A stretch of DNA of 32,000 nucleotides from an uncultured Candidatus Saccharibacteria bacterium (GTDB lineage Bacteria > Patescibacteriota > Dojkabacteria > CAZCSM01), in NCBI GenBank assembly GCA_964501355.1, contig CAZCSM010000011.1, positions 1 to 32,000 of the forward strand, given 5' to 3'. This document shows, piece by piece, positions 2,721-21,129 of this stretch. Position 1 is the stretch's first letter. Every line of letters begins with the position of its first letter. The position numbers were made by a program, and so were the translations under genes. Below the pieces are notes generated by a model. The model was not told the origin of the DNA and ran no database searches. It saw only the letters and a list, made by a program, of their open reading frames with translations.

Positions 2721-2854
2721 CACTTTATCTGTATGGGGTTGATTAATCTTTGGGGTCTGGGACAACCTGTTCCGGTAGTTATCTGTATTAGGTTGCTATT
2801 TCTCGGAATTAGGTTGTCCCGGAAATTTTGGTTACTTTTGTTTGCAAAAGTAAC
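2721..2854 (+). repeat. Structured intergenic repeat, copy A
   Basis: 5' box ATCTGTATGGGGTTG...GGGGTCTG. Helix P1 2756-2768/2811-2823 and hairpin P2 2831-2840/2845-2854. Near-identical to 20373-20509 and homologous to 13255-13391 and 12571-12713. Confidence 0.85.
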
Positions 2855-4655: not shown

Positions 4656-7600
4656 GTGAAGAACAAAGTCGACATTTTTACGGTAAACAGAAAAACGAAA
4701 GCACCCGAGAAGAGGGTCAACCATAATAAACAAATGTTTATGATGATTGGCTTATTGGGATTAGTGATTGCTATTCCTCTTCTCGTCTTTACACTTCTTC
4801 AACCGGAGGGTGCATTTGAAACTAGGAGAGAAGCTGCAGAAAGCACTCAATTCTATGGACTTCTCAAGCTAACTTCCGAAATACCGCTGCAAATGATCCC
4901 CGAAGGGTTCATCGGTGATGATTACTATTATTTTGCAAAAACAGATAAAAAGCCGGTAAACTTTGGCACCTCGGAACTTTCACCAAAATATTTAGTTGCA
5001 GCCAAAACAAACATCGATGACTTACTGCTAAATGCACACTACGATACATTATCCAGTTCGCAGACTTACTCTATCCAAAATGTAACGACAACCCCAATTA
5101 CGGGTTCTGCGACAACACAACTTATTGTAACCGATGAGGGTTCTCTAATTGAAGAAATCAGTAACCAAATTCCAGGCGTCTCCGCAGTAGGGACGTTGCC
5201 AACGGAAGTGAAAGCAGGACAACCATTCTCTCTCAATTATAGAATTGAAGATCAGAACTCAGCAAAAGGAGATCTTATTCAGAAGTATTCAGTCACTCGT
5301 GGGTATAAAGGAGGCGGTTTTGTCTCAGATGATAACTGGGACGTCACCACTACACCAAATTATCAAACGACGTTTAATGTGACATCCCCTCTTTCCGTGA
5401 CAATCGGAGGAACACCGCCGGAATCAGCTATCGGGAAAACATTGGAACTGGGGGTTGCAGGAGTAGAATTAATTGGGAGCTATGGTGAGAAAAAGATTGA
5501 AGTCGCGATTAAAGAGAATGCCGCACCGGAAATTCAGGATATTGTTTATTATGAAAATAATGGGATAAATCCAAACTCCGTAGAGCATGTTTATCGACTT
5601 ATTTATGGGACAAAGGATTCTGTTTCTGGAAAAGTTGAAGTCCTTGCGTCAGACTCGGACGATACAAATTTAACATATACATTTGGGACATTACCTACAA
5701 GATTTAAAAATGTAAGGACAGAAAATAACGCTATTCTCTTTGATATCAGTTGGGATAACTTTGATGGGACCGAAGTATTTGAGACGGAAGTAACAGTTAC
5801 AGATGGATACAAAAGCGTAAATAAGAAAATCCCAATTGCAGTAAGTAAAAAATATACTCTTCACGACCCTGCCCTTTGCCCACCGGTTCCAGGAGTAGTT
5901 TGTGAAGACTGGTCAGCAGATTTTAATTACACAGTAAAGACTAATTCATATCAAGTTACTTTTACACGACCTGATAATCTTATACCATCAAATAATAGCA
6001 TCGAAACATTCTGGTGGATATTTGATGACGGACTCGAAACATATGGGGACGAAACAGTAACACACACATATCCTCGCTCAGGTTCCTATGACGTAACATT
6101 AGTTATTATGGATTCTTCTGAGACAGGAGTATTCATGACAAAAAGCATTACAGTCAATCCAATTGGGAATTTAAAACCACCACAAGCATCCTTTATTGCA
6201 ATTCCGCAGGTTGGGAATGCACCACTTACAGTAAGAGTAAACCCGGAGGGTTCTTCAGATGCAGACGGAACAATTACAAAATACGAATGGAACTTTGGAG
6301 ATGGTCAGAGCCAGGAACATAATAGTGCGATAGCATTTGAACATACATTTAATACAGCAGGACTGTATACAATAACACTGACCGTTACTGATAACGATGG
6401 ACTAACAGCACAACAGACGTCGAAGATTACAGTTGGATCAAATACAGCACCCGTCGTATTCATCACGAAACCAAATCAGGGAACGTACGGAGGAACCGCA
6501 AGCAATCCTGGGAATAGGATAACGTGGTCGGTTGCTGATGCAGAAAATAACTCTCCCCTTCTCTATAATCTTTACTTGGTCAAATCACAAGCCGGAGGAA
6601 CATGTACTAGCGAAGCTACAAATACAGCACCAAACTATTTATTATCTTCAGGAAATATCAATTACTCCGCAGGACAATATCTTCCATCTGTATTTGAATG
6701 GGATACATCAACATCAAGATCCGGAAGCATTGTAGACGGGTATTATTGCGTAAAGATAAATGTAATTGATGACACATATGGTCAGCTTTCTGCTGATTAC
6801 TCTGACAACCCTATTGAAATAATCAATGCTCAACATACGCCATACGTTACAACAGAATATTTACCGGATGCGGTAAAAGATCAGTATTACTCCACGCAAG
6901 TTAACGCTTACGATGAAGACGGTGATTCCCTGACATTTGCACTTGGCAAAGGTCCGAACTGGGTTGAGGTTACAAATGCAGGAGAGATAAAAGGCACACC
7001 AAATGCAAGCGGACCTCAAACGATAATTATTACAGTTACAGATGGAAGAACTCGAACAATTAAAGTTTATACACTAAATGTGAAAGCTATCGAAGGACAG
7101 ATTCTACCAGCTGTAACGGTTGCGACAAATATTGAAGTATTCGTCGGAAGCACAGGAATAATCAACTGGACTATGGAAAATGGCGATGATGTATCAAGTC
7201 TGGACTTACAATATTCAACCGATGGAGAAAATTGGAACAACATAGCAAGCGGTTTATCGAAAGATATAAATGAATACAACTGGGATGTTTCAGAATTAGA
7301 GGCCGGAGTTTATCAAATACGAATCCTTTATTATGATTCAGAGGATAATACATTGGGTGCAAGCTCAGTCAAAGAGATCGAGATTGCACAACCTGAAGCA
7401 CAAAATGAAAGCGAGCCAATTGTATATGGGATGAAACCTACCGATGGAGAGAAAGTAACAGATAAGACACCAAAGATTTCTGCAAACTTTAAGGCAGGAT
7501 TTGGTAGTAAAGTTATGTTAGAAAGCGTAAGAGTTTACCTAGATAATAAACAAATTCAAAATAACGATGGATTTGAAGTATTTGATGGCGGATTCGCATA

Positions 7601-8199: not shown

Positions 8200-10416
8200 A
8201 TGAAAATCTACAATCTTAAAATTGCAAAGACTCGACGATTGTTCACGATCAGTATTGCAATATTATCCTGCATCTTTTTTTTCAGTAAAAATTTTCTTGA
8301 AAAGGCCTATGCACTAACAGAATCTTTTTCTCCCGCTGATTTAGTCATAGGTCAACCTGATATGATAAGTGGAACAGCGAATAATGGAGGAATCAGTGCT
8401 TCTAGTTTATCGTGGACCTACTCTGTTTTCAGTTATGGCGAAAATGTATATGTAGCAGATACAATGAACAGTAGAGTTTTAATATATAATGGAACACCAG
8501 GAGAAGATAATTGGGATAATGTAGCTGACTATGTGATAGGTCAACCTGATATGGTAAGTAATACTGGGAATAATGGAGGTGTAAGTGCTAGCAGTTTGTA
8601 TCAATCTTTTTCAGTTGCTACAGATGGAAGAAATGTTTATGTGGCGGACTTTATTAATAACAGAGTTTTAATTTATGATGGAATTCCAGGAGAAGAGGGC
8701 TGGGATAATGTCGCAGATTATGTTATTGGTCAACCTGATATGACCAGTGTTACTGCAAATAACGGGGGAAGAGGTGCTAGCAGTTTATATCGACCAACTT
8801 CGGTTGCCACAGACGGAGAGAGAGTCTATGTTGCAGATAACAATAACAATCGAGTATTGATTTATAATGGAATACCAGGAGAAGTAGGATGGGATAATGT
8901 AGCTGACTATGTGATAGGTCAACCTAATATGACCAGTGGTACTGGAAACAATGGAGGATTAAGTGCCAGTAGTTTATATCAACCAACTTCGGCAACCACA
9001 GATGGAGAGAGAGTTTATGTAGCAGATTATGTTAATAGTCGAGTGTTAATCTATGAGGGAATACCAGGAAAAGAGAGCTGGGATAATGTCGCAGACTATG
9101 TAATAGGTCAACCTGATATGACTAGTGGTACCTCTAATAACGGAGGGGTAAGTGCCAGTAGCTTGTTTTTCCCACGGTCAGTTAACACAGACAGAGAAAA
9201 AGTCTATGTGGTTGATAGCTATAACCATCGAATTTTGATCTACGAGGGGATACCAGGAGAGGTAGATTGGGATAACATCGCAGACTATGTAATAGGACAA
9301 TCTAATATGACAAGTAATACGAAAAACAATGGAGGTGTAAGTGCTAGTAGTTTATCTGAACCAACTTCGGTTACTACAGATGGAAGAAATATATATGTGG
9401 CAGAAAGGCTTAATTATCGTGTACTAATCTATTACATGGGTCCACAAAATATGAGTTTCACTTCAGTTTCTAGCTTAAGCAATAGCTTGACAGGAAACAC
9501 TTTTACTCTTGCAGGACGTGATGCAAAAGAGATGATGATATCTGAAGACAATGCTTTTGACGGAATCCCATGGGAAAGTTTTTCAACTTCAAAACTGTTT
9601 AGTCTTTCATCTGGAGATGGAATAAAGACTGTATATGCTAAGATGAGAGATTATGCTAATTATGAAGGAGAAGTACTATCAGCAACAATTACTGTAGATA
9701 CAACTAAACCAACAGGTACATTTTCAATCAATACAAATTCTACCTACACAAACACACCAGTTGTTACACTCACACTATCAGCAAGTGATAACCTCTCAGG
9801 AGTATCACAAATGATGATTTCAAACACTTCAGTTTTTACAGGAGCAAGTTGGGAAAACTATTCAGCAACTAAACAATGGACACTACCATCGGGAGATGGA
9901 GAGAAGAGCGTATATGTTAAGTTTAAAGATAACGCAGGAAATGAATCATTGGTTGTTAGCGATACTGTTATTCTAAAAACCGCTGCACTTCTAACACTAG
10001 ATCTGACTAATCTAAATTATCAACAAACACAGGAGAGATATACAAGAGCAGAAGGAGAACCGGTGATAGTAAGAGGAACAGCAGAACAGAGTACGGTGGT
10101 AACAATCACAGCATTAACGGAAGAAGGAGTAGTGGTTTACGAGACCCAATTAACAGTAGGAGAAGGTGGTAACTGGGAGATAGACTTAGGAGATGTTTTA
10201 GGAGTAGGAACATACCTAGTACAAATAACAACGACCGATCCGGCAGGGAACATAGCATCGAGTGAGTTTACTTTAGGTGTCGAAGCTGTTATAGAAGAAG
10301 TCGAAACTTTACCACAGACAGGAGAAGGAATTATAATTCCGTTTTTCCTAGGAATCTTCTTATTGTTGAAGCACTTTATGAAAAATAAAATGACTAAGCA
10401 ATATATTTTTCACTAG
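8200..10416 (+). CDS. Sortase-anchored six-bladed NHL-repeat beta-propeller surface protein
   Basis: N-terminal signal/TM. Six 63-aa repeats (ADYVIGQPDMTSGT.NNGG.SASSL..P.SV.TDG..VYVAD..N.RVLIY.GIPGE..WDN, including YNHRILIY). Two repeats of about 110 aa (SGDGxKxVYxK..D.AGNES type). C-terminal LPQTGE + hydrophobic segment + KHFMKNK tail. Confidence 0.85.
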   Translation: MKIYNLKIAKTRRLFTISIAILSCIFFFSKNFLEKAYALTESFSPADLVIGQPDMISGTANNGGISASSLSWTYSVFSYGENVYVADTMNSRVLIYNGTPGEDNWDNVADYVIGQPDMVSNTGNNGGVSASSLYQSFSVATDGRNVYVADFINNRVLIYDGIPGEEGWDNVADYVIGQPDMTSVTANNGGRGASSLYRPTSVATDGERVYVADNNNNRVLIYNGIPGEVGWDNVADYVIGQPNMTSGTGNNGGLSASSLYQPTSATTDGERVYVADYVNSRVLIYEGIPGKESWDNVADYVIGQPDMTSGTSNNGGVSASSLFFPRSVNTDREKVYVVDSYNHRILIYEGIPGEVDWDNIADYVIGQSNMTSNTKNNGGVSASSLSEPTSVTTDGRNIYVAERLNYRVLIYYMGPQNMSFTSVSSLSNSLTGNTFTLAGRDAKEMMISEDNAFDGIPWESFSTSKLFSLSSGDGIKTVYAKMRDYANYEGEVLSATITVDTTKPTGTFSINTNSTYTNTPVVTLTLSASDNLSGVSQMMISNTSVFTGASWENYSATKQWTLPSGDGEKSVYVKFKDNAGNESLVVSDTVILKTAALLTLDLTNLNYQQTQERYTRAEGEPVIVRGTAEQSTVVTITALTEEGVVVYETQLTVGEGGNWEIDLGDVLGVGTYLVQITTTDPAGNIASSEFTLGVEAVIEEVETLPQTGEGIIIPFFLGIFLLLKHFMKNKMTKQYIFH
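8335..9468 (+). repeat. Six tandem 189-bp coding repeats (NHL blades)
   Basis: The unit start GC(T/A)GA(C/T)T(A/T)(T/A)GT(G/A/C/T)ATAGGTCAACCTGATATG recurs at 8335, 8524, 8713, 8902, 9091 and 9280, an exact 189-nt period. Confidence 0.9.
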
Positions 10417-10777: not shown

Positions 10778-12559
10778 ATGGATTACAAAATAATTAGACA
10801 AAAATATCTGGACTACCTCAAGAAACGAGGACATTCGGAAATTGTCAACGCATCACTTGTTCCGGAAAATGATCCAACAATTCTTTTCACACCAGCAGGA
10901 ATGTCTCCAATTGTCCCCTATCTTCTTGGCGAAAAACACCCGCAAGGTACACGACTCGTAAATATTCAAAGATCGATTCGAACCGGAGATATTGAAGAAG
11001 TCGGAGATGCAGTTCATCTTACTTTTTTTGAAATGGCAGGAAACTGGTCGTTGAATGACTATTTTAAGGAAGAAGCCATCGACATTACTTTCACATTCTT
11101 GGTTGAGGAACTAGGACTTGATCCGCTTAAACTTTATGGCTCTGTTTTCGAGGGTGATAATGATGCGCCAAGAGATGATGGTGCTATCGAGTCGTTAAAA
11201 AAAGTGTTTACAAAATTCGGAGTTGAAGCAAAGGCGGGAGATAGAGAACGAATCCAGTTTTTTGACAAAGCAAAATGTTGGTGGGAGCTTCCGGCAGGAG
11301 GACCATGCGGACCATGTTCCGAGATTTTTTATGATACGGGGAAAGATTATTGTGGAGAGAACTGTAATGTAAATTGCGATTGCGGAAAATTCGTCGAACT
11401 TGGGAACAATGTATTTATGGAATTTTTAAAGAAAGGCCCGGGACAATATGAACCGCTTGGAAAACACAATGTGGACTTCGGTGGTGGAATTGCTCGTTGG
11501 GCAGTATTTATGCAGGGAGTTGATAATGTATTTGATACGGATATCTACATTCCGATCAAAAAGAAAGTTGTAGAATTAGCTCAGGAACAGAGTGAAAAAT
11601 CAGTTCGAATAGTAACTGAACATATTAATACCGCAGTATTTATTCTAATGGATGGTGTTGTTCCCTCGAATACCGAGCAAGGCTACATCTTACGCAGAAT
11701 AATCAGACGAGCAATTCGACATGCAAAACAACTCGGCATCCCTACTCCATTTGCAAAAGAAGTCGCAGAAGTTGTAATAAAACAATGGAATGATCTTTAT
11801 CCGGAACTTGAAGAAAGAAAAGAGTTTATTCTTAATGAATTGGAAAAAGAAGAAGAGAAATTCGCAAAGACAGTTGAACAAGGAGAGAAAGAAATTCGCA
11901 AAGAAAACATTGAACAGCTTGATGGAAAGAGAATATTCTATTTTTACGAAACATATGGCTATCCATTTGAATTATCATTAGAAATCTTGAAAGAAACAGG
12001 CTCGGTTGATGAAGAAAAGCTTCAAAAAGAATTTGACGAAGCTTTCAAATCACATCAGGAGTTATCTCGAGCAGGACAAGGAGAGAGATTCAAAGGCGGA
12101 CTTGCTGATACATCAGAAGCTTCGACAAAATATCATACAGCAACACACTTGTTAAACGCGGCATTGAAAGAAATCGTCGGAGAACACATCTACCAAAAAG
12201 GAAGTAATATTACACCAGAGAGAATGAGGTTTGATTTTCCAAATGATTCGAAACTAACACCGGAACAAGTGAAAGAAGTTGAAGATTGGGTAAATGATAA
12301 AATCGAAAAAGAACTCTCTGTTAGCGTTAAGGAAATGACACTTGATGAGGCAAAGGAACTAAAATCCGAAGGTGTATTCGGACACAGATACGGAGAAAAA
12401 GTGAAAGTATATACAGTTGGAGATGAAGAGAATCCTACGTCACGAGAAATCTGCGGAGGACCACACGTTGCAAATACAAAAGAACTAGGAAAGTTCAAAA
12501 TTGTAAAACAGGAAAATGTCGGCGCAGGAGTAAAGAGAATCAAGGCTATATTGGAATAA
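10778..12559 (+). CDS. alaS: Alanine--tRNA ligase, short form lacking the C-Ala domain
   Basis: Class II AlaRS motifs DPTILFTPAGM, HLTFFEMAGNWS, GGPCGPCSEIFYD and GNNVFMEF. Editing-domain motifs HTATHLLNAALKE and CGGPHV. The protein ends right after the editing domain (593 aa). Confidence 0.92.
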   Translation: MDYKIIRQKYLDYLKKRGHSEIVNASLVPENDPTILFTPAGMSPIVPYLLGEKHPQGTRLVNIQRSIRTGDIEEVGDAVHLTFFEMAGNWSLNDYFKEEAIDITFTFLVEELGLDPLKLYGSVFEGDNDAPRDDGAIESLKKVFTKFGVEAKAGDRERIQFFDKAKCWWELPAGGPCGPCSEIFYDTGKDYCGENCNVNCDCGKFVELGNNVFMEFLKKGPGQYEPLGKHNVDFGGGIARWAVFMQGVDNVFDTDIYIPIKKKVVELAQEQSEKSVRIVTEHINTAVFILMDGVVPSNTEQGYILRRIIRRAIRHAKQLGIPTPFAKEVAEVVIKQWNDLYPELEERKEFILNELEKEEEKFAKTVEQGEKEIRKENIEQLDGKRIFYFYETYGYPFELSLEILKETGSVDEEKLQKEFDEAFKSHQELSRAGQGERFKGGLADTSEASTKYHTATHLLNAALKEIVGEHIYQKGSNITPERMRFDFPNDSKLTPEQVKEVEDWVNDKIEKELSVSVKEMTLDEAKELKSEGVFGHRYGEKVKVYTVGDEENPTSREICGGPHVANTKELGKFKIVKQENVGAGVKRIKAILE

Positions 12560-12570
12560 AATATATTAAA

Positions 12571-12713
12571 TCTTTCTGTTCTAGGCATTTGGTCGTTGGG
12601 GTCTGGGGGGATGTGTGTTTGCACGGGTAAGGATGATTTGTCTTTATCTATCTGCCAACGGAAAACGCCACATCCCCCCAGCGCTTTTGATTCCTTTTGG
12701 CGTCAAAAGGAAT
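12571..12713 (+). repeat. Structured intergenic repeat, diverged copy D
   Basis: Keeps the 5' box GGTCGTTGGGGTCTG and the CTTTTG linker. P1 is CTGGGGGGATGTG (12603-12615)/CACATCCCCCCAG (12669-12681). P2 is ATTCCTTTT (12690-12698)/AAAAGGAAT (12705-12713). Confidence 0.75.
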
Positions 12714-13254: not shown

Positions 13255-13391
13255 CCCTTATTATCTGTATTGGGTTGTTGAATCGTCGAAGTCTGAAACA
13301 AGTGATTCCGGTTGCTATTTGCTTTAAGGTCGTGCTTGGAGGGAGTTCACTTGTTTCAGAAATTTTGGTTACTTTTGTTTGCAAAAGTAAC
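13255..13391 (+). repeat. Structured intergenic repeat, copy B
   Basis: 5' box ATCTGTATTGGGTTGTTGAATCGTCGAAGTCTG. P1 is TCTGAAACAAGTGA (13292-13305)/TCACTTGTTTCAGA (13347-13360). P2 is 13368-13377/13382-13391, identical to copy A. Confidence 0.85.
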
Positions 13392-14621: not shown

Positions 14622-14649
14622 TTTTGTCGTTTGACATTTGTCATTTGTC
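14622..14649 (+). repeat. Four tandem heptads (TTTGTC/TTTGAC core)
   Basis: TTTTGTC GTTTGAC ATTTGTC ATTTGTC, then CC. Same motif family as 240-260. Confidence 0.7.
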
Positions 14650-14673
14650 CCTCCGTTTGCTATTCTATATAAA
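14645..14673 (+). promoter_or_regulatory. Candidate promoter of the 14697-15407 gene pair
   Basis: -35 TTGTCC (14645-14650), 17-nt spacer, -10 TATAAA (14668-14673), 24 nt before the ATG. Confidence 0.3.
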
Positions 14674-15407: not shown

Positions 15408-15509
15408 AATTTCTAATTACTCTAATTGACCTAATTTCTAAATAATAAGCGGTATTTCACAATGCTCTGGTGCTATTAATTCACCCACTTTCTATTTTCA
15501 TTTTTCGCC

Positions 15510-19396: not shown

Positions 19397-20338
19397 CTAA
19401 ATCACACTCAACAAAAGCGTAATCGCAAAGAGCGGATCAGTAACGCTAGTTTTAATTTGGAAATCAATTTCCACAAGTTTATCGTAAAGTACCTTGAGTT
19501 TTTCAAAGCTAATCGATTGGCGACTGTTTACGATCTTGCTCACAACAAAAGGGCTGAACTTTAACTTGGATGCAATTGAAGAAGGACTTGTTCCCCTGCT
19601 CTGTTCATATTTAATTAAAATTAGCTGACGAAACTGCCAAACAATTAACCCCCAAATCTGATGAATATCATTCCCCTGACGAATTAATTTTTCTAAATTT
19701 GATATGGCTACATTTTTATTTGCCGTAGCGATAGAGTTTGTTAGTCCCCAGACTTCAACGGCAGCACTTGCCGGAACCGCATCCTCAACATCCTTTACCG
19801 TAATTTTCCAACCTTTTTTATAAAGGCTAAGTTTCTCTATCTCACTACTAATCCTCCACATTTCTTCCCCTACTCTTTCTGCAATCTTTTGAGCAACTGT
19901 AGGAGAAACTTTTTGACCAAGAGATTCAAATTCTTCAATAATCCAATTCTCCAGAGATTTACCTTTTAACTCTGCAAACTCTTCTACCTCAAATTCTTTT
20001 TTAAAAAATTTGTAGAACACAGATCTCTTATCCGCAGCCTTATTTTCCCAGAAGATGAAATCTACCTCTTTTATTCCTGTTAATTTTGAATCCTGAAAAA
20101 ATTCAACAAACCTTTTACTTTCGGAGGTTTCGGAGAAATACTTCACAACAACAAGTTTCTGAGGATTAAACATAGATATTGAATCAATCTCAGATAGCAC
20201 CCTTTCAGCAAGAGCAGAACTTCCGTCTAAATATGTAACAGACGATTCTCCGTGATCTCTCTCAAAAGCAGAAGTAATCTCAGAAAGCCGCTTTCTAGAC
20301 AAATACGCATTAGGACCGTGGATTAAAAGAAGATTCAC
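19397..20338 (-). CDS. holA: DNA polymerase III subunit delta
   Basis: 313 aa with the typical delta layout (LIHGPN..., SMFNPQKLVVV, EIEKLSLY...ITVKDVEDAV, C-terminal helical domain LVEIDFQIKT). GTG start. Confidence 0.75.
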   Translation of the reverse strand: MNLLLIHGPNAYLSRKRLSEITSAFERDHGESSVTYLDGSSALAERVLSEIDSISMFNPQKLVVVKYFSETSESKRFVEFFQDSKLTGIKEVDFIFWENKAADKRSVFYKFFKKEFEVEEFAELKGKSLENWIIEEFESLGQKVSPTVAQKIAERVGEEMWRISSEIEKLSLYKKGWKITVKDVEDAVPASAAVEVWGLTNSIATANKNVAISNLEKLIRQGNDIHQIWGLIVWQFRQLILIKYEQSRGTSPSSIASKLKFSPFVVSKIVNSRQSISFEKLKVLYDKLVEIDFQIKTSVTDPLFAITLLLSVI

Positions 20339-20372: not shown

Positions 20373-20509
20373 CCCCTTTATTATCTATATTTGGTTGTTA
20401 GTCGTTGAGGTCTGGAACAACCTGTTCCGGTAGTTATTTGTATTAGGTTGCTATCTGCTGGAATTAGGTTGTTCCAGAAATTTTGGTTACTTTTGTTTCC
20501 AAAAGTAAC
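20373..20509 (+). repeat. Structured intergenic repeat, copy C
   Basis: P1 is TCTGGAACAACCT (20411-20423)/AGGTTGTTCCAGA (20466-20478). P2 is 20486-20495/20500-20509. It is in + orientation although both flanking genes are on the minus strand. Confidence 0.85.
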
Positions 20510-20526
20510 AGAGATGAATATTTCCA

Positions 20527-21129
20527 TTATACCTTCTCAAATTCCACCACAACCTTATCCTGCATAAAACGAAGCTTAGTCAACTTTCTACTCCCGAAAT
20601 TCTGGGTCTTCATTTGCTCAATCGCTTGGTAAACAGCCTGATCTAATTTATCCGAGATAAAATCTGGAAGTTTAATTGGTCCGACAGAAAGCTTCTCCGG
20701 TTTTGGATAATAAGTTCCCGCTTCAGTTTCTTCCGAAACAAACTGCGAAGAAATATCCAAACCGAAAGGTCCTGCGGAATGGAAATATCCGGTATTGAGA
20801 GCAAAATCTAAATAGAACTCATCTGCTTTAACAGGAAGCCATTTAATATTGGAATTTGTAATAAAGGAAGTTATAAACTCCTCTGCCTCAAATTCAGTAA
20901 GAATCAAGGTTGCAGTGCCGGACTCGTCTAAATTCTTCTCCAGAGTATCAATGCGTTCTTCTAAATCAATCGTAGCCTCCCCAAGCACCTGAGAGTCCGC
21001 TTCTATCTGCGGGCCCTTATACATGAAGTTATCTTTCTGACTATAAATGAAAAGCCCAATTCCTCCGATAAACAAACTTAGGATTAATAATGCTCCACCA
21101 GTTATTAACAAAAAGAATTTTCTGATCAT
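20527..21129 (-). CDS. Membrane-anchored hypothetical protein, translationally coupled to murJ
   Basis: N-terminal TM (FFLLITGGALLILSLFIGGIGLFIY). Its ATG overlaps the murJ TGA (ATGA). Confidence 0.65.
   Translation of the reverse strand: MIRKFFLLITGGALLILSLFIGGIGLFIYSQKDNFMYKGPQIEADSQVLGEATIDLEERIDTLEKNLDESGTATLILTEFEAEEFITSFITNSNIKWLPVKADEFYLDFALNTGYFHSAGPFGLDISSQFVSEETEAGTYYPKPEKLSVGPIKLPDFISDKLDQAVYQAIEQMKTQNFGSRKLTKLRFMQDKVVVEFEKV

Follow-up and report, generated by a model that had tools for sequence, protein, structure and literature searches.

Four copies of a structured intergenic repeat element with a predicted pseudoknot, and recurrence of its 3' module in genomes assigned to at least five bacterial phyla

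Four copies of a non-coding element of ~135 bases are located between housekeeping genes of a candidate-phyla-radiation bacterium, and the 29-base 3' module of the element recurs almost unchanged in repeat elements of genomes assigned to at least five bacterial phyla. The covariation data indicate that the element folds into a long hairpin (P1) followed by a small hairpin (P2) that is pseudoknotted. No match to any Rfam 15 family was found. The window, meaning the whole stretch of DNA analyzed here, is 32,000 nucleotides long and belongs to a Patescibacteria genome whose closest named relatives are Dojkabacteria/WS6. All four copies are on the + strand (copy A, 2721-2854; copy B, 12571-12713; copy C, 13255-13391; copy D, 20373-20509) and share one architecture. 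The diagnostic strings TCKTYGRRGTCTGR and TTTTGRTTMCTTTTG each occur exactly four times with 0 mismatches, and a covariance model built from the four copies detected only these four on the + strand of the window at E<1e-3. Model R1 scores copies A, B, C, and D at 150.3, 122, 135, and 153 bits, respectively. The mean column identity of the copies is 71%. The folding z-scores are -4.0 to -7.3, and 14 of the 29 consensus pairs show double (compensatory) changes among only four copies.

Copy A starts 10 nt after the stop of the M48 peptidase ORF (2010-2711). Its 5' box (2724-2741, TTTATCTGTATGGGGTTG) is conserved in copies C and D and in the relative designated as L111. The portion at 2725-2741 is repeated with 1 mismatch inside the P1 interior (2779-2795, TTATCTGTATTAGGTTG), and the interior sequence is conserved in copies D and C and in L111. 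Copy D also carries the duplication (7 matches against 0.28 expected). A purine box plus U (2751-2755; TGGGG, then T of TCTG) lies directly 5' of P1, and 32 family members from several lineages are G/purine-rich at positions -5 to -2 and have U at -1. The 5' arm of P1 is at 2756-2774 (TCTGGGACAACCTGTTCCG) and the 3' arm is at 2804-2823 (CGGAATTAGGTTGTCCCGGA), which includes G2821 paired with T2758. P1 is followed by a triplet designated as X (AAA, 2823-2825), a linker designated as L1 (TTTTG, 2826-2830) that is nearly invariant across the superfamily, and P2 (2831-2854), which consists of GTTACTTTTG (2831-2840), the loop TTTG (2841-2844), and CAAAAGTAAC (2845-2854). A sequence-only reading had described the four copies as an unrecognized structured intergenic repeat family, and this is confirmed together with the positions of P2, the duplicated box, and the T:G pair. 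However, P1 extends to 19 pairs instead of 13-14, so that the interiors are 29-42 nt rather than 41-53 nt, and all four P2 loops are 4 nt, not 4-6 nt. That reading also did not notice the pseudoknot, the larger superfamily, and the insertion of two copies into an operon.

The other three copies are arranged similarly. Copy B is in the alaS-ruvX spacer, with P1 at 12602-12620/12663-12682, X (CGC) at 12682-12684, L1 at 12685-12689, P2 at 12690-12699/12704-12713, and the loop GCGT. Copy C is between ruvX and mltG, with P1 at 13292-13310/13341-13360, X (AAA) at 13360-13362, L1 at 13363-13367, P2 at 13368-13377/13382-13391, and the loop TTTG. Copy D is between two - strand genes (holA, 19397-20338, and an ORF at 20527-21129) and is thus antisense to both. 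Its P1 is at 20411-20429/20459-20478, X (AAA) at 20478-20480, L1 at 20481-20485, P2 at 20486-20495/20500-20509, and its loop is TTTC.

The three bases before the TTTTG linker pair with the first three bases of the P2 loop (in copy A, 2823-2825 with 2841-2843), and this pairing covaries across 32 homologues. In these homologues, P1 is 95.5% paired with compensatory change in 16 of 18 pairs, and P2 is 100% paired. The five lower pairs of P2 covary, while the five upper pairs (UUUUG/CAAAA) never vary. The pseudoknot helix is 85% paired and all three pairs have double changes (CG10/GC8/AU6/UA3; AU16/GC13; CG14/GC5/AU4). Slid controls gave 40-58% pairing, and 0 of 500 shuffles reached the observed values. 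An independent count on 89 pattern-derived instances gave 76-91% pairing against 44-62% in shuffles. On the other hand, this third helix has only 3 bp and a 1-nt return loop, and it fails in both copies of the relative L114. Together with P2, it would make an H-type pseudoknot. We infer from invariance alone that the 5-nt U-rich linker may run in the deep groove of the U4:A4 half of P2, forming U.A-U triples, which would explain why UUUUG...UUUUG...CAAAA is nearly invariant while everything else covaries.

To investigate the origin of copies B and C, the locus was compared with three relatives (L111, L113, and L114) that have 57-63% identical MltG. ruvX and mltG overlap by 4 nt in all three relatives. 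The alaS-ruvX spacer is 10 nt in L114 and 88 nt in L111, neither holding an element, and 237 nt in L113 with no model match. Copies B and C are therefore lineage-specific insertions into the alaS-ruvX-mltG operon, and copy C split a translationally coupled ruvX-mltG pair in a streamlined CPR genome. Homologous copies lie at other sites in two of the relatives (L111, 3572-3706 at 79.7 bits; L114 at 37 and 25.5 bits), while L113 has no copy. In addition, short-read contigs of the same organism break inside copies A and C.

The 3' module TTTTG-GTTAC-TTTTG-NNNN-CAAAAG-GTAAC occurs in more than 105 loci. The hosts include Bacteroidota isolates and MAGs labelled Firmicutes, Patescibacteria, Melainabacteria, and Proteobacteria, and cultivable Sphingobacterium strains carry family members. 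The GC content of the loci ranges from 28% to 65%. Many of these genomes carry several copies. A metagenome scan for the window's own AAA-type module gave only 2 loci, from another organism. Some MAG pairs labelled as different phyla share identical families, which suggests transfer or mis-binning. These identical families, the divergence of the window copies, and the differing positions between relatives (with no copy in L113) could be explained by a decaying selfish repeat with no present function in the window, whose helices are inherited from different master copies and whose cross-phylum module reflects horizontal transfer of one successful element. We consider this unlikely, because random decay would break pairs whereas 96% of cells stay paired with abundant double changes. 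The module also stays AU-rich and nearly unchanged in genomes of 63-65% GC while the flanks adopt host composition, and intergenic and orientation biases (see below) are present.

Searches of Rfam 15 with gathering and E-value modes gave 0 hits in the window, only chance-level hits at copy A, and nothing at the elements in 26 (17 plus 9) related loci. No tRNA or tmRNA was found in the window. The longest terminal inverted match is 5 nt and no consistent flanking direct repeat exists, in disagreement with a MITE, although one distant lineage carries the module inside a ~620-nt repeat with inverted ends. A 41-codon ATG frame runs through copy A, but the corresponding frame is interrupted by stops in copies B, C, and D. 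No consistent promoter or canonical terminator consensus was found, and P2 is AU-rich with no T-run after it, unlike an intrinsic terminator. The ends of the element (TTATCTGTAT... and ...CAAAAGTAAC) show no integron attC core sites, and the neighbors are housekeeping genes. On inspection, resemblances to the Tn3 inverted repeat (only GGGGTCTG is shared), SRP RNA helix 8 (a CGGAAGGAGCC stretch in Saccharimonadales versions, without an SRP model hit), Hin/Gin hix sites, sigma-54 and Bacteroidetes -7 promoter boxes, BglG-type RAT sites, and a k-turn for the UUGUYUGAG/CGAGUU loop (no canonical C-stem) were rejected. Literature searches with the module, the UUGUCUGAG...CGAGUU loop, and neighboring repeat motifs returned only unrelated papers.

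No associated protein was found among the flanking genes examined. All-vs-all clustering of 836 flanking ORFs gave a largest cluster of 4, consisting of ABC ATPases. The 145 nearest ORFs hit 242 Pfam families with none in more than 3 members, and no transposase or RT was among the recurrent ones. The downstream genes and those in the Saccharimonadales loci are unrelated and include parA/parB, umuD/dinB, rpmB, and nrd. The element was absent from IMG/VR (0 hits), and a representative module gave only 2 chance-level hits in PLSDB plasmids and none in E. coli genomes.

These results bear on the possibility that the conserved hairpin with its fixed 5' flank (TTTTG) is a single-stranded DNA recognition site of a trans-acting HUH/Y1-type enzyme, as in REP/RAYT or IS200/IS605 'PATE' elements, in which case any RNA would be a by-product. 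In agreement with this possibility, the hairpin is strand-specific and has the same orientation in all four window copies, terminal inverted repeats and target-site duplications are lacking as expected for peel-and-paste elements, near-identical multi-copy families and contig breaks are present, and the module sits in mosaics with GTAG-type REP-like hairpins in Oscillospiraceae. Short non-contiguous base pairing next to the hairpin, as is probably used by IS200/IS605 TnpA, would also produce covariation. However, no Y1, RAYT, TnpB, or other transposase was found in the window or near any of more than 100 copies, and the lack of hits in IMG/VR and, for a representative module, of relevant hits in PLSDB is likewise against it. 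There is no GTAG and no second matching hairpin at the other end of the element, and the covarying partner lies in the hairpin loop instead of at a cleavage site. Moreover, transposase sites would normally diverge between phyla, whereas this module does not, and the sense orientation bias behind genes is also against it. A DNA-level element is an unlikely, but the strongest, alternative.

The reading of the + strand as RNA is favored but not proven. G-U outnumbers A-C in paired cells (17 to 7), although this excess is partly confounded because the strand is G-rich and the alignment was fitted by a model that accepts G-U. The + strand folds better in 72 of 90 family members (p=8e-9). Copies A, B, and C start 9-12 nt after a co-oriented stop codon, and the family member L108 starts 5 nt after one. 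The element is sense to the upstream gene in 55 of 81 scorable loci (p=0.002), and divergent promoter regions are avoided (6 against 20 convergent contexts). This bias is only about 2:1 and comes from crude ORF calling, and copy D is an exception as described above.

Two other RNA-level explanations were considered. A family of stand-alone small RNA genes, or the RNA subunit or guide-like RNA of an unidentified RNP with the 3' pseudoknot hairpin as a protein handle, would agree with the conservation of the interior box and the YGGAR motif between the window copies and L111 while the stems covary, with the Saccharimonadales MAGs that mostly show a single hit per genome with a long rod and a three-way tip, and with copy D, which is independent of the orientation of its neighbors. 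Nevertheless, this explanation is improbable. There is no promoter or terminator consensus, no conserved synteny or partner gene, and no Cas12, TnpB, or IscB nearby. Copies start about 10 nt after stop codons and sit inside an operon, and the near-identical multi-copy families behave like repeats, not genes. An undescribed self-cleaving ribozyme or a riboswitch-like triple-helix pseudoknot is the least likely. An invariant core inside covarying helices and a pseudoknot would suit it, and small ribozymes can be associated with repeats, but no Rfam ribozyme or riboswitch hit was obtained even below the threshold, the invariant residues are mostly U and A inside a helix instead of junction purines, and the downstream genes are unrelated to one another.

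Our preferred reading, to which we assign a probability of only about 0.4 in the absence of any demonstrated RNA product, is a non-coding, non-autonomous interspersed element with a REP/BIME-like lifestyle that colonized intergenic spacers and is read as a + strand single strand, most likely as part of the transcript of the gene it follows. The compact knot is proposed to act at the RNA level as a structural barrier, which could protect or define 3' ends or insulate neighboring cistrons from exonucleases or processing. Copies are inferred to spread through a trans-acting machinery that recognizes the conserved module. However, the near-identical multi-copy families in some genomes show selfish spread, and selection for mobility alone could maintain a hairpin with no RNA function needed. 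It is also possible, though again less likely than not, that the 3' module (triplet-UUUUG-5-bp stem-UUUUG-complementary triplet+N-CAAAAG-stem) is a previously undescribed cross-phylum pseudoknot or triple-helix RNA motif that defines a superfamily of mobile non-coding elements, being either a new kind of exonuclease-resistant or 3'-end-protecting knot in bacteria or the recognition handle of an unidentified mobilization or RNP machinery (reverse transcriptase, HUH enzyme, or guide-RNA protein). If the knot protects RNA ends, it would be a bacterial counterpart of the eukaryotic and viral triple-helix stability elements and a portable tool, and if it is a mobilization handle, it would mark an unknown transposition or retro-mobility pathway. 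The near identity of the module inside otherwise unrelated rods points to a widely shared constraint, which could be an intrinsic RNA architecture or an undescribed common host or mobile machinery.

Among known systems, REP/BIME elements and REPINs of Proteobacteria, which are probably mobilized by RAYT, are likewise short non-coding structured repeats in intergenic DNA, often just downstream of ORFs and inside operons, with a strand-specific hairpin, a fixed 5' flank, and no terminal inverted repeats, target-site duplication, or internal transposase. REPs can be co-transcribed and probably stabilize upstream mRNA. The present element has no GTAG tetranucleotide, is 135-250 nt long rather than about 35 nt, carries a pseudoknot and a long variable rod, has no RAYT gene in the window or next to the copies examined, and has a module conserved across phyla, whereas REP sequences appear to be species-specific. 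Bacillus cereus bcr1, Neisseria Correia/NEMIS, enterobacterial ERIC, and Rickettsia RPE are also non-autonomous repeats (100-170 nt) that appear to fold stably as RNA, to be co-transcribed with neighboring genes (which is only inferred for the present element), and to show insertion polymorphism between relatives. These families generally have terminal inverted repeats and/or target-site duplications and are confined to one genus or family, while the present element has neither and its 3' module spans genomes assigned to at least five phyla. In the Cas12a crRNA 5' handle and the TnpB omega-RNA pseudoknot, bases just upstream of a short hairpin similarly seem to pair with its 4-nt loop, the 5' segment is U-rich, and the module sits at the 3' end of a longer structured RNA derived from a mobile element. 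Here, no Cas12, TnpB, or IscB gene was found near any copy, there is no array, the hairpin is 10 bp rather than 5 bp, only one module is present per element, and no Rfam IS605-orfB or HEARO match was obtained. Finally, H-type pseudoknots with a U-rich loop in the deep groove of an A-U helix, such as those of telomerase RNA and the SAM-II and preQ1-II aptamers, and ENE/MALAT1-type triple helices share crossing helices, an invariant U-tract linker facing an invariant U:A helix while the other helices covary, and a plausible role in protecting a 3' end. The present element differs from them in sequence, with no Rfam match, in its multiple copies without a link to a particular gene class or ligand, and in its pseudoknot helix of only 3 bp, and its base triples remain an inference.

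The four + strand copies of the element (A to D) were all confirmed at the positions assigned to them by the sequence-only reading. Two diagnostic strings, TCKTYGRRGTCTGR and TTTTGRTTMCTTTTG, each occur exactly four times without mismatch, and the 17-nt 5' box matches 7 times against 0.28 expected, a count that includes the internal second copy in A (2779-2795) and in D (20434-20450). Each copy folds far better than shuffled sequences, with z-scores from -4.0 to -7.3. RNAalifold analysis of the four copies gave 29 pairs, consisting of a 19-bp helix (P1) and a 10-bp helix (P2), and fourteen of these pairs carry double changes. Copy A agrees with the sequence-only reading in its details, including the T2758:G2821 pair and the start of the element 10 nt after the stop of the M48 gene. 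However, P1 is longer than the proposed 13-14 bp, leaving interiors of 29-42 nt rather than 41-53 nt, and all P2 loops are 4 nt rather than 4-6 nt. In copies A and D each P1 arm is itself a palindrome (20412-20430 and 20458-20477; likewise 2757-2775 and 2803-2822; CTGGAACAACCTGTTCCGG; CTGGAATTAGGTTGTTCCAG), and a two-hairpin fold could therefore compete with the long P1, whereas copies B and C lack this feature.

No Rfam 15 family matches the window at gathering scores, and a search of the copy A region in E-value mode gave only chance-level miRNA and lncRNA hits. In the absence of positive support, a ribozyme or riboswitch is very unlikely. There are no tRNA or tmRNA genes, and no reading frame is conserved. 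Neither a sigma-70-like promoter nor a terminator of the hairpin-plus-T-run type recurs at the copies, and there are no terminal inverted repeats and no consistent target-site duplication. A T/G-rich box family (TTYGTC.TTTG.C.TTTGTCATTTGTCCC) was observed at 234-262, 14623-14651, and 15480-15508, each copy upstream of a + strand ORF, and it may be a promoter or leader motif of this lineage. The window encodes housekeeping and surface proteins only, with no transposase: sortase, M48 peptidase, a solute-binding protein, PKD/NHL proteins, short AlaRS, RuvX, MltG, DNA pol III delta, MurJ, LeuRS, and a methyltransferase. Within the ORF at 8200-10416, six tandem 189-bp (63-aa) repeats at 8335-9477, 71-78% identical to the first, encode NHL repeats of a surface-type protein with a Big_13 domain. 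The AlaRS ORF (10778-12559) is only 593 aa, comprising a catalytic core plus the tRNA_SAD domain, and relatives have 604-630 aa; this short form looks typical of the lineage.

MltG homologues place the organism in Patescibacteria, and the nearest named relatives are Dojkabacteria/WS6 and Microgenomates at about 43% identity. Contigs of closer unnamed relatives, with MltG at 76%, 63%, 63%, and 57% identity, were retrieved for comparison of the alaS-ruvX-mltG region. In three of these contigs, designated as L111, L113, and L114, ruvX and mltG overlap by 4 nt, while the window has a 196-nt spacer that holds copy C. The alaS-ruvX spacer is 88 nt in L111, 237 nt in L113, and 10 nt in L114, compared with 266 nt in the window, where it holds copy B. 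Copies B and C are therefore lineage-specific insertions into an operon. In the 76%-identical relative (L109/L110, 1-45), the 98 nt upstream of mltG contain ACAAAAGTAAC in the position of the 3' end of copy C but no preceding P2 5' arm, which is either a decayed copy or chance.

A covariance model built from the four copies (R1) found full-length homologues at other positions in relatives. L111 3572-3706, downstream of mltG, scores 79.7 bits, and L114 6895-7025 and 15876-16004 score 37 and 25.5 bits, respectively. R1 also matches a metagenomic locus (L108) at 57 bits, while L113 has no match even with filters off. Short-read contigs of the same organism from other samples end inside copies A and C, as expected for a repeat. 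Between window copy C and L111, the 5' box and the interior box are conserved while the P1 stem has covaried.

To investigate the distribution of the 3' module, one genome per GTDB species was scanned with the exact pattern TTTTGRTTMCTTTTGNNNNCAAAAGKAAY, for which we estimated about 0.02 matches by chance. By record title, the hosts include three cultured Sphingobacterium species, Mucilaginibacter, Pseudopedobacter, Aphodosoma, and Paludibacteraceae; Oscillospiraceae, Faecalibacterium, and Eubacteriales; Saccharimonadia, Falkowbacteria, Komeilibacteria, and other Patescibacteria; Melainabacteria and Gastranaerophilales; and Pseudoxanthomonas and MAGs labelled Alpha- and Gammaproteobacteria. 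Some MAG labels are doubtful; identical families turn up in MAGs assigned to different phyla. In particular, MAGs labelled Gemmatimonadales (SRP068000_co1_608) and Glassbacteria (CSMAG_1147) share a ~620-nt repeat, near-identical between them, that has TGTCCGGTWAA-type inverted ends and carries the module internally, indicating either mis-binning or recent transfer. The locus GC spans 28-65%, yet the module stays AU-rich and unchanged. R1 matches about 50 of 75 further loci over its whole length and the rest over the module only, and Rfam finds nothing at the elements in 26 of the loci.

Many genomes carry several copies, which fall into 46 upstream-sequence clusters, and some clusters are near-identical over 230 to about 620 nt, while the Saccharimonadales MAGs mostly show one hit each. 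Tandem head-to-tail duplications of whole elements (units of 288-295 nt), or of the module alone, occur in some genomes (loci L015, at 18 and 306; L096, at 95 and 390; and L075, at 1830 and ~1883). In eight Oscillospiraceae loci, 40-150 nt after the module, and also at L114 ~7040-7070 and in the L109 tail, the module lies in mosaics with other repeat units. One is a REP-like GGGCGGATAATATCCGCCCCTAC(G), whose reverse complement is GTAG plus a hairpin, and another is the AGATTCTTC...TCAGAATGACA hairpin. A CCGGAATGACAG motif also follows the element in a Dojkabacteria-like relative. Another GC-rich hairpin repeat of the type CACCC(C)AACCCTCTCC...GGGAGAGGG recurs near the elements in MAGs labelled Alphaproteobacteria and Melainabacteria and in the Dojkabacteria-like relatives (loci L087, L091, L013, L060, L102, L111, and L113).

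The elements are almost always intergenic and lie sense to the upstream gene in 55 of 81 cases (p=0.002), and divergent intergenic regions are rare (6 against 20 convergent). No protein family recurs next to them. A group II intron (Rfam RF00029, 55.5 bits) with RT-like ORFs lies at 5932-6006 (-) of a Sphingobacterium suaedae locus (L024), about 430 nt from one of three modules, but no link was established. The exact pattern gave no hit in IMG/VR, and representative sequences found nothing relevant in PLSDB and nothing in E. coli genomes.

The shared features of the family are, from 5' to 3', an optional 5' hairpin; a purine box followed by U (GGGG in most copies, GAAG in copy C, and GAGG in copy D); P1; a triplet designated as X; the linker UUUUG; P2; and, in many lineages, a further small GC hairpin that the window copies lack. 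P1 opens YYGGG and closes CCCRR, and carries a rod of variable length and sequence, whose 3' strand often carries a YGGAR motif. In the Saccharimonadia, Melainabacteria, Pseudoxanthomonas, and Aphodosoma versions the rod carries a conserved asymmetric internal loop, UUGUYUGAG[hairpin]CGAGUU, with candidate tandem G.A pairs, which is absent from the window copies and does not fit a canonical k-turn.

A structural feature absent from the sequence-only reading is that X is complementary to the first three loop bases of P2 (X'). In 89 non-redundant pattern hits, the three positions pair in 76%, 91%, and 80% of cases, compared with 47%, 62%, and 44% in shuffles. On the 32-sequence model alignment, the three pairs are 85% paired overall and show 17, 14, and 10 double changes with four to five pair types each. 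In that alignment 96.1% of all cells are paired, against 40-58% for slid partners, and none of 500 shuffles reaches the observed values. This maintained pairing contradicts the neutral decay of a selfish repeat, which we regard as unlikely. The lower five pairs of P2 covary in the same alignment, with the observed stems GUUAC/GUAAC, AUUAC/GUAAU, GUUCC/GGAAC, CUCCAC/GUGGA, UCCCA/UGGG, and GCCAC/GUGGC. In contrast, the upper UUUUG/CAAAA half never varies, and the linker varies only marginally (UUUUC once; UUUUU in L114).

Regarding the strand, paired cells contain 17 G-U against 7 A-C, and the first pair of P2 is G-C in 82, A-U in 5, G-U in 3, and A-C in 0 cases. The + strand fold is more stable than the - strand fold in 72 of 90 members. 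These observations favor a + strand single-stranded molecule, although they are partly confounded by the G-rich composition and by model fitting. A purely DNA-level role, as an ssDNA hairpin for an HUH/Y1 enzyme, remains a serious though doubtful alternative because it explains the strand specificity, the fixed 5' flank, and the absence of inverted repeats and duplications. However, no such enzyme was found near any of the copies, and the module does not diverge between phyla as transposase sites do. A stand-alone sRNA or RNP RNA, including an orphan guide-RNA-like handle, fits the conserved loops, the single-copy Saccharimonadales versions, and the antisense copy D, but it lacks promoters, terminators, and partner proteins and is considered improbable.

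The order X, linker, P2 5' strand, X', N, and P2 3' strand is an H-type pseudoknot in which the linker must cross the deep groove of P2, and a 5-nt linker and a 5+5-bp stem fit that geometry. Free covariation of the lower stem and of X:X', together with the strict invariance of the U-tract linker and of the U4:A4 half of P2, is what U.A-U major-groove triples would impose, as appears to be the case in telomerase RNA, SAM-II, and ENE/MALAT1-type structures. We therefore infer that the module is a compact RNA knot stacked on the P1 rod, as part of a tentative overall reading of the element as a REP/BIME-like interspersed repeat read as a + strand transcript, to which we assign a probability of roughly 0.4. 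The elements lie mostly sense-oriented just behind ORFs and between cistrons, lack terminator tails, and have no partner gene. The most economical function would be an RNA-level structural barrier, for example 3'-end definition or protection, or cistron insulation, as suggested for REP elements in E. coli. The multi-copy, near-identical families and the insertion polymorphism show that the element also spreads, by machinery that is unknown. The evidence does not exclude a genuinely new RNA motif or the handle of an unknown machinery.

In lifestyle the element works like REP/BIME, bcr1, or Correia-type repeats, and it can be placed among the structured interspersed intergenic repeats. It differs from REP in lacking GTAG and in size, and from MITEs in lacking inverted repeats and duplications. 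It also fails the defining tests of IS200/IS605 derivatives, attC sites, intrinsic terminators, and every Rfam family. It is distinguished by a covariation-supported pseudoknot module that is conserved across phyla.
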